The translations under genes were made by a program, and so were the position numbers. Of a stretch of DNA of 64,000 nt, positions 1 through 5,267 are shown piece after piece (positions within the stretch are counted from its first letter, which is position 1; every line of letters starts with the position of its first letter). The notes beneath the pieces are model-generated. The model had not been told where the DNA came from, made no database searches, and saw nothing but the letters and a program-made list of their open reading frames with translations. Source of the stretch: Armatimonadota bacterium (GTDB lineage Bacteria; Armatimonadota; SYMT01); the NCBI GenBank assembly GCA_046292385.1, contig JBKBRF010000005.1, forward strand, positions 149,340-213,339, read 5' to 3'.

Positions 1-641
1 CTGCCGTGCTGCTGGTAGAAAGCCTGGGCCTTGTTCAACAGCTCCAGCGCCGTGGGGTAATCGCCGCGCTCGTAGTAGGTCCAGCCGGTGTTGTTGTAGA
101 GCGGCCCCAGCCAGCGGCGGGCGCGCTCGTTCTTGCTGCGCTCCGCCAGCCCGATCGCCTGGAGGTTCCACTTCAGCGCCTCGTCCGGCGTCTCCGCGAT
201 GCCGAGCATGTGGGCGGCGTCGAGCGCGTACGCTTCCTCCCCCGCCGCGTTCGCCAGCTCCCACGCCTCGCGGAAGAGCCGCCGGGCCCGCTCCGGCTTC
301 TGGTCGGAATTGAAGGTGCGGCCCCGCTCCAGCAGGTAGCGCACGCGGGCGGTCTTCAGGTCCGGCTGAAGCAGCCCCTCCGCCTCGTCCAGGATGCGGT
401 GCGCCTCCGCGAACTTGCCCTGGAGACTCTGGGTGCGGCCGAGCTGGGTCAGGAGCTGCACCAGGTAGTCCCGGTTGCCGGACCGCCTGGCGCGGGGAAG
501 CAGCTCCCGGAACGTCTCCGCCGTCTCCTCCGGCTGCTGGTAGTTCCAGAGCTTGTCGATCACCGGAAGCGGCTCATCGTCCGGCTCCCGCGCGGCGATG
601 GCGAGCGCCAGGAGTGAGCAGAGCAGGATGAGCACGGTCAT
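1..641 (-). CDS. TPR-repeat protein with N-terminal signal-like segment (3' end runs off the window)
   Basis: Manual translation from ATG 641 (GGAGG upstream): MTVLILLCSLLALAIAARE...LTQLGRTQSLQGKFAEAHRILDEA...LYNNTGWTYYERGDYPTALELL. TPR-like helical pattern. Absent from the ORF track because there is no stop in the window. Confidence 0.75.
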   Translation of the reverse strand, partial: MTVLILLCSLLALAIAAREPDDEPLPVIDKLWNYQQPEETAETFRELLPRARRSGNRDYLVQLLTQLGRTQSLQGKFAEAHRILDEAEGLLQPDLKTARVRYLLERGRTFNSDQKPERARRLFREAWELANAAGEEAYALDAAHMLGIAETPDEALKWNLQAIGLAERSKNERARRWLGPLYNNTGWTYYERGDYPTALELLNKAQAFYQQHG

Positions 642-738
642 GGCAGCCTCCGTTCCGGATCCCGGCAGCTTGCCGGGCAGGCATGGAAGCGTTCGCCGGC
701 CGGGAGGCGGGTCCTCCTCCCGGCCGGCGATGGCCGGG

Positions 739-1881
739 CTACTTTTCGACCGGAGTGTCCGGGCGGCTGGTGTAGTCCGCGAACGAGCCGTAGTAGACTT
801 TGACCCGGGGGTAGCCGATCAGCTTGAGCGTGAAGAGGGAGTGCGACGCACGCCCGCCCGACGCTCAATAAGTGACCACCTCTTTGTCGGGGGTTACCCC
901 CTTGCTCTCGTAGAGCTTCTTCAGCTCCGGGCCGCTCTTGAACACCTGGTGCGGGCCGGTCACGTTCTCCGACCAGTCGACGTTCACCGAATTCGGGATC
1001 CGACCCGCCTTCTTCGCGCCGCCGGAGAGCCGCTCTCCCGTGAATTCGTCTGCGGAGCGGGTGTCCAGCACCACCACGTCGGGCCGACGCGCGAGCAGCT
1101 CCGGCGCGGCGCAGACCAGCTCCGGCACCTTCTTCGGTTTGAAGGTCGTCGCGGCGACCCGGGGAGCTTCCACCGTCGTGGGCCGCTTCTCCGCCGTCCA
1201 CTTGCTCCAGCCGCCGTTGACCAGGCTCACCTTCGGGTGGCCGTAGGCGTTCAGCACGAACCAGAGCCGGGCCGCGCTGCGGCCGCCCGCGTCATCGTAG
1301 ATCACCACGTGGGTGTCGGCGCCGATCCCCGCCTTTCCCATCATCGCAGCGAACGCCTCCGGGCTCGGCAGGAAGTCGGCGGTGTCGTTCGCGTCCCGCA
1401 GCGGGCCCTCGGACAGCCGGACCGCCCCCGGGAGGTGCCCGGCGGAGTACTTCTCATCCGAGCGCATGTCGACGATCCGGACCGTCGGGTCCTGGAGCCG
1501 GTGCTCCAGCCAGCTCGTCTCCACCAGCAGCTCCGGGTGGGCCCAGCCGCCGGAGCGGAACGTCTCCAGGTGCGCGAAGAGCGCCTGCGCCTTCTCGCCG
1601 TCGAGCTGCACCGCGGCGAAGCCTTTCGACTTCTCGATCACCTCCAGGGCGGAGAGGCGCTGCGTGATGTCGACCAGGCTCCTGGCGCCGGCGTAGGTGG
1701 TGGTATCGGCGCCGTCCTCGCCGTGACAGCGCGCGCAGTAGGTGGCGTAGAGCGTCTCGCCCTTCGCCCGCAGGCTCGCGGACTCCGGCCTGGGAGCCGC
1801 CTGCGCGCCGAGGACAGACGCCAGGACTATTCCGATGGACGCGCCCACGCCCGCCCAGGCCGCGACTCTTCGCGGATACAT
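739..1881 (-). CDS. Exported cytochrome c / tandem-rhodanese sulfurtransferase fusion, probable selenoprotein (UGA at 865-867 read as Sec)
   Basis: Signal peptide, CARCH heme motif and SseA-type motifs (GHLPGAV, GRIPNSVN). Reading through the TGA gives EVVTY-U-ASGGRASHSLFTLKLIGYPRVKVYYGSFADYTSRPDTPVEK* (TAG 739-741), the normal rhodanese C-terminus with U at the catalytic Cys. Confidence 0.85.
824..868 (-). promoter_or_regulatory. SECIS-like hairpin directly after the in-frame UGA of the rhodanese gene
   Basis: Minus strand TTGAGCGT-cgggcgggc-GTGC-GTC-GCAC-tccctcttc-ACGCTCAA. It has an 8-bp lower stem including the UGA and an apical loop starting with G about 18 nt after the UGA. Confidence 0.6.
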
Positions 1882-2054
1882 CGATCCCCCTCCCGCGGCG
1901 CCTCCGCGCCGCTCCGATTCAGTCTACTCCGGGCCGGCTTCGATGACCCGCGTCACCACGCGTGCTGCCGAATTCAACTGGAATGCGATACGTAGACGGC
2001 ACCGACTATCTGACCGGGAGAACCCCAGACCCCCTCGTTCAGGAGTAGCCCCGA

Positions 2055-2591
2055 ATGCCGAACGTTCTCTCCAGCCTCTATCCGTTCCACGGCAAGATCG
2101 TTACCGTCCGCGTCGACGACGTCCGGCTGCCCGACGGCCACGTGACGCAGCAAGAAGTGGTGGAGCACCGGGAGTCGATGACGGTAGTCGCCCTCGACTC
2201 GGAAGACCGCCTGGTGCTGGTGCGGCAGTACCGGCACGCGGTGGGCGAGGTGCTGCTGGAGACGGCGGCTGGATCGATCGACGACGGCGAGACCCCGGAG
2301 GAGGCGGTGAACCGCGAGCTGGCGGAGGAGACCGGCTACCGGGCCCGCCAGGTGGCGCGGCTCGGCAGCTTCTACCTCGCCCCCGGCTGGGCCACGGAGC
2401 ACATGCACGTCTTCCTCGCGCGGGACCTGTATGAGTCGCCGGAAGAGGGGGACGAGGACGAGCGGATCGAGGTGGTGCATCTTTCCATTCCGGAGTGGGA
2501 AGAGATGATCGCGCAGGGCGCGGTGCGGGACTGCAAGAGCCTGGGAGCCTGGCATCTCGCCCGCCGCTATCTCTGGGAGACGCGAGGATGA
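2055..2591 (+). CDS. NUDIX hydrolase, ADP-ribose pyrophosphatase (NudF)-like
   Basis: Nudix box AGSIDDGETPEEAVNRELAEETG, VRQYRHAV motif, AGGAG RBS. Confidence 0.9.
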   Translation: MPNVLSSLYPFHGKIVTVRVDDVRLPDGHVTQQEVVEHRESMTVVALDSEDRLVLVRQYRHAVGEVLLETAAGSIDDGETPEEAVNRELAEETGYRARQVARLGSFYLAPGWATEHMHVFLARDLYESPEEGDEDERIEVVHLSIPEWEEMIAQGAVRDCKSLGAWHLARRYLWETRG

Positions 2592-3157
2592 GCCGGACCG
2601 ACGCGCAGCGACTGGTCGCCGCTGCCGCCTTCGCCGCGGAGATCCACCACGGTCAGTGCCGCGATGAAGGGACGCCGTACCTCGAGCACCCGCTCCGCGT
2701 GGCCCGCATCGCGGCCGACGAGATCGGCATCTCGGATCCGGAGTTGCTGATCGCGGCGCTGCTGCACGACACGCTCGAGGACGCAGACGATCCGGAGGCG
2801 GCGCGGCGGCGCATCCGGGAGGAGTTCGGGGAGCGCGTGCTGGAGGTCGTGGAGCTGCTGACGAAGCCGTCCGACGACGGGACCTCAAAAGAGGCGCGCG
2901 ATCGCGAGTACCATTCGCGCCTGCAGCAGGCTCCGCGGGAGGTCCAGGCGCTGAAGATCGCCGACCGGCTGGACAACACCCGGTTCCTGATCCACTCTCC
3001 CGACTCGAAGAAGCGCGGCCGCTACCTGCGCGAAACGGAGGAGGAGTACCTCCCGCTCGCGGAGAAGGCGGGCGTACTGGTGGAGCCGCTCCGCGAGGCC
3101 ACCCGGCGCGTGCGAGAGCTCTACGGCCCACCCCCGGAACCGGACGCCCAGGAATGA
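2588..3157 (+). CDS. HD-domain small alarmone hydrolase (RelA/SpoT hydrolase, Mesh1-like)
   Basis: Motifs PYLEHP, ALLHDTLED and KIADRLDN. ATGA overlap with the NUDIX stop. Confidence 0.8.
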   Translation: MSRTDAQRLVAAAAFAAEIHHGQCRDEGTPYLEHPLRVARIAADEIGISDPELLIAALLHDTLEDADDPEAARRRIREEFGERVLEVVELLTKPSDDGTSKEARDREYHSRLQQAPREVQALKIADRLDNTRFLIHSPDSKKRGRYLRETEEEYLPLAEKAGVLVEPLREATRRVRELYGPPPEPDAQE

Positions 3158-4050
3158 AGAGACTCGCCGCCGCCTTCCTGCTCTCCCTCTTGCTCTCCAG
3201 CGCTGCCGTCCCGGCACCGAGCTACGGCGAGGGCCAGGTTGCGGAGCTCCTCGCCGTTGCAGTAGCGGAGCAGGAGCCGGAGCGGCGGCGGGCGCAGGCG
3301 ATCCGAGCGCTGGAGCACACGGAGCTGCGCACGCATCTCCCGGCGCTGCGGCGGCTCCTGCGAGAAGAGCGCAGCCTCGACATCCGCCTCGCCGCCGCGT
3401 GCACGCTGGCGGCGCTCGGCGACCGGAAGTCGCCGGCCGACCTCCTCCTGGTCACCGCCTACGACCAGGAGCGCACCCCGAGCTGCACCCGCTCCGACGT
3501 CGTCCTGGCGCTGGCGCGCACCGGCAACCCGGCCGCCGTGCTGCACCTGCGGAAGGCGCTGGAGGCCCCCGCGCCGGCGGACGAGCCGTTCTTCTACGCC
3601 GACGCCTGCCGCGCGCTCAGCATCCTAGGCACGCCGGAGGCGCTCGCGGAGCTGGGACGCGCGCTGCGAGAGGGCTCGGCCGAGGTCCGCCACGCCGCCG
3701 TCACCCCCCTCGCCAACGCGGCTCGAACGCTGAGCGTGGAGGAGCGGGCCTGGGTGAGCGCCGCGCTGCTCTACCGCGCGCGAGAGGACGCCGAGCCGCG
3801 CGTAGCGGAGCAGGCGATGAGCGGGCTCTTCTGGTGCGGAGTGGACGCTTCCGCATTCTTTCGACTGCTGGAAGCCGATCCCGAGCCGGAGGTCCGCGCC
3901 CGCGCCGCCCGGGTGATGAACCGCCACTACCTCCGCCCCCGCCACCTGGAGCGCCTGCGCGCCGCCCTCGCGACCGAGCGGGATGCCGGGGTCCGGACCG
4001 CGATCGAAGAGACGCTCCGCAGCCAGGAGCGCGGGGATCGCGTCCAATAG
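3154..4050 (+). CDS. HEAT-repeat protein with signal peptide
   Basis: Repeated IRLAAACTLAALG / VRHAAVTPL / VRARAARVM units, hydrophobic N-terminus, ATGA overlap. Confidence 0.75.
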   Translation: MKRLAAAFLLSLLLSSAAVPAPSYGEGQVAELLAVAVAEQEPERRRAQAIRALEHTELRTHLPALRRLLREERSLDIRLAAACTLAALGDRKSPADLLLVTAYDQERTPSCTRSDVVLALARTGNPAAVLHLRKALEAPAPADEPFFYADACRALSILGTPEALAELGRALREGSAEVRHAAVTPLANAARTLSVEERAWVSAALLYRAREDAEPRVAEQAMSGLFWCGVDASAFFRLLEADPEPEVRARAARVMNRHYLRPRHLERLRAALATERDAGVRTAIEETLRSQERGDRVQ

Positions 4051-4090
4051 GCCGGGGCTCCTCACTCACCGGCTCAAGGGGAGGGCTTCG

Positions 4091-4372
4091 ATGCGACGCC
4101 GCGCCGGAGTGCTGCTGGCTACCGCAAGTCTCCTGACGGCGCTGCTGCTGATCGGCGCCGCGGTCGGAGACTACGCCCTCTCGGGCGGGCCGCTCTCGCC
4201 AGGCCTCCGCACACAGTTCTCTCTAGTCCCGGCGAGCCCGTGGCGCTTCGACACCCTGGTAGGCTGCGGGCCGGGCACCGTGACCTACGTGACGACCATC
4301 GGACCGGTGCAGATCGTCCGCGAGGGCGGACGCAGCCCCTTTGATTCGCGACGTGGCACTGCACGGCAATGA
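4091..4372 (+). CDS. small hypothetical membrane/secreted protein
   Basis: ATG 4091 after GGGAGG. Basic then hydrophobic N-terminus MRRRAGVLLATASLLTALLLIGAAV. Confidence 0.5.
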   Translation: MRRRAGVLLATASLLTALLLIGAAVGDYALSGGPLSPGLRTQFSLVPASPWRFDTLVGCGPGTVTYVTTIGPVQIVREGGRSPFDSRRGTARQ

Positions 4373-4463
4373 GGGATGCCCCGTACTGTAATCGGCGGAA
4401 CCCGAGCGCTTGCTCGTGGGTCAGGAAAGCAGCACGTGGGTCGATCCACAGGAGGACGCATCA

Positions 4464-5267
4464 ATGCGTACGCCCCCCTCTCCCCGGGCGGTCGTCGGGT
4501 TACTTTTCGCCCTGGCAGCCCTTACCAGCGCTGCCCGCGGCCCCATCGCCGCAGCCGAACCGCTCACCCCATCAGGGTATGAAGGCGACCGGTATGAGCC
4601 GGACGACTCCCCGTACCGCTCCCGCAAGATCTCGATCTACAGCCGCCCGCAGCGGCACAGCCTGCACTGGTCGAAGGATTGGGACTTCGTCCGTTTTCGG
4701 GTGCCGGCCGGCAAGGTGGCCGTGATCGAGACGTTCGACCTCACCGACGGCTGCGACACGGTGCTGAGCCTCTTCGATAGCGACGGTGAGTCGAAGCTTT
4801 GGGAGTCGGACGACTTCCGCGACGAGGACCGGTCCGTCCTCCGGTACGCGGTGGAGCACACCGGTCTCTACTACGCCAAAGTGCGGCAGGTGGACGGCGC
4901 CGACGAGCGGGAGAAGGGGTACTCCCTGCGAGTGCGGGTGCAGGAGCCACGCCTGGGCGGCAAGATCGACCCGGTGTGGATCTTCGGATTCCCCGGCACG
5001 CGCCGCGGCCGCACCGGCACCGCCACGCTGGAGCTGAAGAACCACAGCGTCTACGAGAACCTGCGGATCGTGGTCGATAAGATCGAAGGGCCGTTCAGCG
5101 TCGTGGAGGGACCCGGGAGCACGATCCTGCCGCCGCGCGGGGTGCTGCCGCTGCGGCTCGCGTTCCATCCCGAGATTCGCGGCACCGTGACCGGCAAGCT
5201 CTACCTGAAGACAAGCGCCCGGGAGCGGCGAAGGGTGGAGATCAGCCTGGTCGGCACGGGGCTATAG
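4464..5267 (+). CDS. secreted protein with PPC-like beta domain and C-terminal Ig-like (ASH / choice-of-anchor D-like) domain
   Basis: AGGAGG RBS and signal peptide. DRYEPDD...DWDFVRF...DTVLSLFDSDG...GLYYAKV, then TLELKN...F.P...G..TGKL.L...V.I.LVGTG. Confidence 0.7.
   Translation: MRTPPSPRAVVGLLFALAALTSAARGPIAAAEPLTPSGYEGDRYEPDDSPYRSRKISIYSRPQRHSLHWSKDWDFVRFRVPAGKVAVIETFDLTDGCDTVLSLFDSDGESKLWESDDFRDEDRSVLRYAVEHTGLYYAKVRQVDGADEREKGYSLRVRVQEPRLGGKIDPVWIFGFPGTRRGRTGTATLELKNHSVYENLRIVVDKIEGPFSVVEGPGSTILPPRGVLPLRLAFHPEIRGTVTGKLYLKTSARERRRVEISLVGTGL

Follow-up and report, generated by a model that had tools for sequence, protein, structure and literature searches.

A predicted selenocysteine-containing tandem rhodanese with a cytochrome c domain, cut short by gene callers at its catalytic codon, in an Armatimonadota bacterium

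The 64,000-nucleotide stretch of Armatimonadota DNA analysed here (contig JBKBRF010000005.1 of assembly GCA_046292385.1, positions 149,340 to 213,339; hereafter the window) contains, on its minus strand, a rhodanese gene whose predicted end raises a question: does its in-frame TGA stop translation just ahead of the active site, or does it encode the catalytic residue as selenocysteine (Sec)? Under translation table 11, the open reading frame (ORF) occupies positions 865-1881, codes for 338 amino acids ending in ...PDKEVVTY and closes at the TGA at 865-867. A preliminary description of this DNA had reported a hidden extension of the frame past ...KEVVTY, and we found it to be correct in coordinates and description: reading through the TGA adds 41 codons, ASGGRASHSLFTLKLIGYPRVKVYYGSFADYTSRPDTPVEK, up to a TAG at 739-741. 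The resulting coding sequence (739-1881, minus strand) comprises 380 codons plus the TAG and starts with an ATG at 1879-1881. From sequence comparisons, we conclude that it is very probably an intact, unannotated selenoprotein gene in which UGA codon 339 is recoded to Sec, rather than a truncated gene.

Pfam detected the Rhodanese family (PF00581) in two stretches (4e-39), and the best solved relative, the Thermus thermophilus rhodanese 1uar (1.4e-47), aligned with residues 112-379. The N-terminal non-catalytic rhodanese domain spans residues ~117-237 (1171-1533, minus strand; Pfam stretch 122-231, Foldseek match to 1uar), and the C-terminal catalytic domain spans residues ~255-375 (757-1119, minus strand; second PF00581 stretch and 1uar alignment). 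The catalytic Cys of 1uar aligns with codon 339, the TGA, which opens the loop U-ASGGRA. A protein search yielded 394 relatives at E ≤ 0.001 among 8000 scored candidates, 120 of which were listed. Cys stands at the catalytic column in 93 of these 120 homologues, most often within YCASGGRA; 26 end exactly one residue ahead of the column (...VVTY, ...IVPY, ...IVVY) and one is a fragment ending before the ...VVTY-type position. At the DNA level, a motif script applied to 176 loci (L020-L195) printed 57 rows, only loci with the motif being shown. TGA occupies the catalytic column in six rows representing five distinct sequences, namely the window, L022 (identical to L040) from a same-family genome, and the metagenome contigs L116, L117 and L119. 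TGC stands there in eight distinct close relatives, giving the Cys/TGA pairs that the preliminary description had proposed to look for, and all more distant rhodaneses among the printed loci have TGC or TGT. A homologue from genome G016 was rejected as a further TGA carrier; its single TGA lies 3' of the protein end and not at the active site.

In all five TGA-bearing genes (Sec forms), the frame runs for 40-41 codons beyond the TGA and ends at the same TAG. The ratio of nonsynonymous to synonymous divergence (pN/pS) downstream of the TGA was 0.06-0.41 in 10 of 10 pairs of these sequences. To judge from these ratios, the 40-41 codons are under purifying selection, the opposite of what the preliminary description had named as grounds for dismissing the extension. 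Synonymous divergence was 0.32-0.50 downstream of the TGA compared to 0.46-0.80 in the 40 codons upstream, a reduction that fits an added constraint acting on the RNA.

Such a constraint could be exerted by a hairpin resembling a selenocysteine insertion sequence (SECIS), which has the UGA at its base (824-868, minus strand); noted in the preliminary description, it proved to be conserved across the five Sec forms. For the 71 nt starting at the UGA, the folding energy was -30.5 kcal/mol (z -2.48), a stability equalled by 5 of 200 shuffled sequences. The consensus over the five Sec forms has 16 pairs, two of which are each broken in two of the five sequences. Pair 18/32 is GC in three forms, CG in one and UG in one, a compensatory change that couples a synonymous Gly third position with an amino-acid change two codons on. 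All five Sec forms share the apical part CGUGC-G(U/G)C-GCACG, whereas its core, CGUGCG(U/G)CGCAC, is found in one of eight Cys forms (L025). In Sec forms, minimum free energies over the first 49 nt ranged from -19.7 to -25.4 kcal/mol, against -10.7 to -21.1 kcal/mol in Cys forms. The apical loop G(U/G)C, which reads G-U-C at 845-847 in the window, starts 17 nt after the UGA, with G first, in all five Sec forms. In bacterial SECIS elements, the apical loop lies at such a spacing from the UGA and begins with G. A figure legend in PMC1088965 likewise points to a conserved G in the bacterial SECIS apical loop. An Rfam scan of window positions 700-1000 gave chance-level matches only and no bacterial SECIS family.

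Recoding would require a Sec machinery, and the genome, a 7.04-Mb metagenome-assembled genome of 91 contigs and 98.45% completeness, has one, as a search advised in the preliminary description confirmed. Genome profile searches detected selA (577.9 bits), selB (367.5 bits) and selD (362.3 bits), all above their curated cut-offs; selD has one in-frame TGA of its own. A tRNA-Sec was found by Rfam (66.6 bits for a gathering score of 47), and ARAGORN placed a tRNA-SeC at the same position. The tRNA-Sec, selD and selA lie side by side on contig C11 (87438-90122). ARAGORN also called a second tRNA-SeC at C77:16947-17029, which is not among the nine Rfam tRNA-Sec matches listed.

The remaining readings of the TGA are that it is an error or carries some other meaning. 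In a pseudogene or true truncation, the TGA would be a stop yielding either a 338-residue protein without catalytic loop or nothing useful, and the downstream frame would be a relic. Gene callers do stop there, both in the window (P0001) and in 25 other listed proteins, and other genes in these loci use UGA as their normal stop. However, the TGA, the constrained 40-41 codons, the TAG and the hairpin are all kept in five sequences at 63-79% identity, and truncation would strip the fold of its active site, last strand and helices, so that we regard this explanation as very improbable. Because TGA, downstream frame and hairpin all recur in four further distinct sequences, the case for recoding exceeds what chance would produce. 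More improbable still is that a TGC or TGT was wrongly sequenced or assembled as TGA, or that a variant code or near-cognate suppression makes UGA specify Trp, Gly or Cys. TGC is a single base away from TGA and is the codon of close relatives, yet TGA is also present in four other assemblies and in contigs of two further runs, the genome has a full Sec machinery, and its genes end in TGA as usual. In the likely source run (X1), the stretch has a depth of 49.5 and no variants, which is not independent evidence. Two soil metagenomes provide assembled contigs rather than raw reads: record 7 from run X2 covers 809-1173 with 11 differences from the window, and record 10 from run X3 covers 781-1016 with 4 differences. 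These contigs differ from the window at 799-808 and 886-898, but not at 865-867 or anywhere within 824-868; the TGC or TGT that the preliminary description had considered as a possible undoing of the claim was thus seen in neither, both keeping TGA.

Which type of rhodanese would the complete protein be? The preliminary description had placed the TGA at the catalytic Cys of SseA/3-mercaptopyruvate sulfurtransferase (3-MST) enzymes. The position holds, being the catalytic Cys column of 1uar and of 93 of the 120 listed homologues, but the 3-MST type does not. All 14 NCBIfam matches fell below their curated cut-offs, and since the best of them, the 3-MST equivalog PRK11493, scored 137.8 bits against a cut-off of 250, the protein is not a 3-MST equivalog by this measure. 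Its U-ASGGRA loop, with R at +5 as in 1uar, is by sequence of the bacterial thiosulfate-sulfurtransferase type. ExtH (NF040901) was the second-best match (59.2 bits, 3.5e-16, cut-off 200), the catalogued Sec-rhodanese model NF041203 reached 35.9 bits for a cut-off of 115, and NF045694 (TsoB) was absent from the 14 matches. An AlphaFold2 model built from an 88-row alignment had a mean predicted local distance difference test score (pLDDT) of 92.7 and a predicted TM-score of 0.89. Foldseek comparison with the PDB matched this model to tandem rhodaneses (1uar, TMt 0.89, TMq 0.66, 38% identity) and found no single chain spanning both the rhodanese and the cytochrome domains. A second tandem rhodanese is encoded in the same genome (C27:33635-34486); it shares 42% identity with the selenoprotein, in a match without internal stop.

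Ahead of the rhodanese domains, the protein carries a putative signal peptide and a heme-binding motif, both of which the preliminary description had read correctly. Residues 1-28 (1798-1881, minus strand) form a hydrophobic N-terminus that, judged by eye, ends in ...LGAQA/AP; residues 1-27 of this signal-like segment are the only low-confidence stretch of the model (pLDDT < 50), and homologues have comparable hydrophobic N-termini. A monoheme cytochrome c domain (PF00034) follows at residues ~37-110 (1552-1773, minus strand), with the CARCH heme motif at residues 49-53 (1723-1737, minus strand). Cytochromes of the PDB, among them CcoP, the heme subunit of flavocytochrome c and TsdA, align with residues 3-42 of this domain only, and the CcoP-type resemblance is confined to its N-terminal half. 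Heme attachment would be catered for by three Cytochrom_C_asm (PF01578) genes clustered on genome contig C7, consistent with a Ccm system; ResB was looked for in the genome and not found.

The same architecture occurs well beyond this gene. CxxCH is present within the first 80 residues of 36 of the 120 listed homologues, comprising 17 with catalytic Cys, 18 that are cut off ahead of the column (among them P0001, the gene call in the window) and one fragment. The preliminary description had called the cytochrome c-rhodanese architecture unrecognised. This stands to the extent that a full-text literature search, whose coverage excluded supplements and subscription journals, found no description of such a fusion, but the architecture is not unique, being shared by these 36 listed homologues in both Cys and Sec versions. 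In several homologues without CxxCH, again in both Cys and stop-before-column versions, the signal peptide leads directly into the rhodanese (for example P0063, on a 60-kb contig, P0105, P0109, P0111 and P0118); the other listed homologues without CxxCH include N-terminal fragments. Of the 120 rows, 112 entered a quick maximum likelihood tree of the rhodanese part; six rows, fragmentary or frameshifted, and two filter misses were excluded. The window clade (Shimodaira-Hasegawa-like approximate likelihood ratio test support 98) contains 17 presumed Sec and 2 Cys forms. The Sec/Cys state changes 7 times on the tree, with at least 4 changes forced by starred branches, and presence of the cytochrome domain changes 17 times, although some of the apparent absences are truncated records. 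Given these numbers of changes, the base family is, as far as the tree goes, an exported tandem rhodanese that has repeatedly switched between Sec and Cys and between presence and absence of the cytochrome c module. Searching with the cytochrome domain alone against 1.84 billion representatives gave 477 matches at E ≤ 0.001, most of them multi-heme proteins similar around CxxCH only. Full-length matches were the fusion family and four other proteins: P0186, a stand-alone 124-residue cytochrome with the same domain; P0230, in which this domain is fused to an Ig-like one; and P0198 and P0267, more distant cytochrome-rhodanese proteins in which no active-site Cys motif was seen by eye.

What might such a protein do? 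The explanation that best covers the whole locus, and that we consider likely, is an exported Sec tandem rhodanese with a heme c domain that performs redox-coupled sulfur transfer. SelB and tRNA-Sec would recode UGA 339 under the direction of the hairpin starting at the UGA. The product would be exported by its signal peptide of the general secretory type and would covalently bind one heme c at CARCH. The small cytochrome c domain would pack on the tandem rhodanese, and the selenolate in U-ASGGRA would be the catalytic nucleophile. In rhodanese chemistry, a persulfide is formed on the catalytic residue and the sulfur is then handed on. Here, the periplasmic selenolate would take sulfane sulfur from thiosulfate, polysulfide or a persulfide, or else selenium, forming a Se-S or Se-Se adduct, and the attached heme would move electrons singly between this adduct and the respiratory chain. 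In the oxidative direction, sulfide or sulfane would be oxidised and electrons passed through cytochrome c to an oxidase, which would suit soil and hot-spring organisms; in the reductive direction, sulfide would be released from bound sulfane, as in the Geobacter protein MccSep. We slightly favour the oxidative direction over a reductive, MccSep-like release. Considered by itself, redox-coupled periplasmic sulfur transfer is a tentative assignment of function, suggested by the domain composition. A further proposal, which we hold to be quite unlikely, is that the Met-less heme does more than relay electrons and shares an active site with the rhodanese loop, so that Sec339, its Se-S adduct or Cys257 would be the sixth heme ligand or lie within bonding distance; the rhodanese scaffold would then hold a His/selenolate(-sulfide) heme centre. 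If this were true, the protein would be a single-polypeptide periplasmic sulfane-sulfur:cytochrome c oxidoreductase that arose independently of SoxAX, TsdA and MccSep.

Several observations weigh against this interpretation as a whole. The Sec sequences are mutually related, at 63-79% identity to the window protein, and hence do not count as independent. The hairpin overlaps the conserved GGRASH codons, its apical core is shared by the Cys form L025, and its consensus includes only one compensatory pair; given the overlap and the shared core, part of the hairpin is a by-product of coding. The cytochrome domain is weak by Pfam, Cytochrom_C (PF00034) scoring 22.3 bits, 1 bit over the cut-off of 21.3, and Cytochrome_CBB3 (PF13442) 23.2 bits, below the cut-off of 27. 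All 35 sequences compared share C49, C52, H53, G54, G57, D59, Y63, S85, F88, L101 and L105, but from residue 54 to residue 112 they have no conserved Met or His that could provide a sixth heme ligand; among side chains able to act as a ligand, only Y63 (35/35) and K67 (34/35; R in the window) are conserved. The redox role of the domain is uncertain for this reason. The domain is also scattered on the tree, and the rhodanese works without it in close relatives. Finally, none of 23 flanking ORFs is shared as a neighbour over nine loci (the window, L040, L041, L116-L119, L023 and L024); since the neighbours differ in all nine, they offer no pathway context for a substrate, and we dropped an argument from operon context for lack of a common partner.

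These points bear on an alternative in which the gene encodes a real selenoprotein whose heme does not act on the substrate, a reading that we judge unlikely. As a redox maintenance or switch module, the cytochrome would keep Sec339 reduced or control a Sec339-Cys257 selenenylsulfide in the oxidising periplasm; alternatively, the enzyme would act on selenite or tellurite, as proposed for the rhodanese-like ExtH of Geobacter. The dispensability of the cytochrome domain in close relatives is in keeping with this alternative. So is Cys257, encoded at 1111-1113 (minus strand) within the catalytic rhodanese domain, which is nearly invariant: 34 of 35 fused forms have it, as do at least 90% of a set of 88 sequences, fused and unfused. 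A class I-like heme, however, is normally too high-potential to reduce a Se-S bond. ExtH ranks second among the NCBIfam matches, but its score is far below the cut-off, and no ext-type neighbours occur in the nine loci. The equal conservation of Cys257 in proteins without the cytochrome domain also weakened the idea of this residue as a heme-specific ligand. We retain the exported Sec rhodanese engaged in redox-coupled sulfur transfer as the best overall explanation.

Other features around the gene add little to its function. A Shine-Dalgarno-like GGGAGGGGGA (1885-1894, minus strand), found by direct reading of the sequence, precedes the ATG by ~7 nt. Immediately 3' of the gene's stop codon, a perfect 8-bp G+C-rich inverted repeat (719-738) may be a transcript-end hairpin; its T-run is on the opposite strand, and the gene's own strand provides no U tract. 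A gene for an exported-looking TPR protein (3-641, minus strand) follows downstream in the same orientation after a 97-nt gap; upstream and divergent are genes for a NUDIX hydrolase, an HD-domain protein and a HEAT-repeat protein (2055-4050, plus strand). None of these window neighbours has an evident link to sulfur or selenium, and the selenoprotein gene seems to stand alone. Over the nine loci, the flanking families were TPR, NUDIX, HD, HEAT, DUF1501, glycosyltransferase, chromate transporter, PadR, hemerythrin, beta-lactamase-like, ThiC, DegT and PhyH. In L119, the Sec gene is directly followed by a convergent gene for a sulfite-oxidase-type molybdoenzyme (Oxidored_molyb and Mo-co_dimer; 3653-4909, minus strand), an arrangement found in this locus only among the nine. 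Elsewhere in the window, two tandem tRNA genes (49803-49964, plus strand) were given the four-base 'anticodons' ctct and cgaa and no amino acid by ARAGORN; they are ordinary tRNAs by Rfam (60 and 55.9 bits).

The predicted recoding has consequences beyond this locus. Gene callers cut 26 of the 120 listed relatives just short of the active site, so that databases lack their catalytic part, and none of the NCBIfam selenoprotein models covers these proteins. Fused to a heme, a rhodanese carrying a selenolate would constitute a compact, testable system for Sec-heme cooperation in sulfur and selenium redox chemistry, a question opened by the 2026 MccSep structure. Natural pairs with Sec or Cys, and with or without the cytochrome, exist within one clade and offer ready comparisons.

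How does this protein relate to known systems? Like 1uar, Mycobacterium SseA and CysA, it has two rhodanese domains and an R at +5 after the catalytic residue; unlike it, these enzymes reside in the cytoplasm, rely on Cys and lack a heme domain, 1uar covering only residues 112-379 of the protein described here. In SoxAX and TsdA, a periplasmic c-type heme lies beside a reactive Cys that carries sulfur, and thiosulfate chemistry is tied to cytochrome c. Both adopt other folds, and the TsdA match (0.04) is limited to the CxxCH region. A rhodanese-PDO fusion, but no cytochrome fusion, appears in the accessible text of a study of cable bacteria (PMC13047784). According to the available part of PMC13510729, MccSep (ExtKL) of Geobacter sulfurreducens is located in the periplasm, carries heme c and uses a catalytic Sec to act on polysulfide. 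It resembles the window protein as an exported c-type cytochrome with a catalytic Sec, and the rhodanese-like lipoprotein ExtH belongs to the same Geobacter cluster; MccSep differs in its five hemes, its lack of a rhodanese fold and the His/Cys ligation of its catalytic heme. The resemblance is one of analogy and not of homology. Sec-containing rhodaneses have been reported before: three sequences of a Sec 'rhodanese-related sulfurtransferase' (COG2897) in the 2005 Sargasso Sea survey (PMC1088965), COG0607 forms listed in a 2022 review (PMC9312934), and five forms, two of them with UxxG, tabulated in a 2026 review (PMC13188914), as far as the accessible portions of these sources go. The Sec-COG2897 proteins appear there as members of the tandem SseA-like class in which Sec replaces the catalytic Cys, with widespread Cys homologues and, as form 4 of the 2026 review, a UxxG motif that corresponds to U-A-S-G here. 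The accessible portions of PMC1088965 and PMC13188914 mention no signal peptide or cytochrome c, those of PMC9312934 likewise refer neither to export nor to fusion with a cytochrome c, and the Sec-COG2897 sequences come from marine plankton rather than from terrestrial or hot-spring Armatimonadota. Sec-rhodaneses themselves being already known bioinformatically, what is new here is the cytochrome c fusion and the lack of a conserved Met or His sixth ligand. Compared by motif and description only, the gene most likely represents a fused subclade of the known Sec-COG2897 rhodaneses that carries a Met-less monoheme domain.

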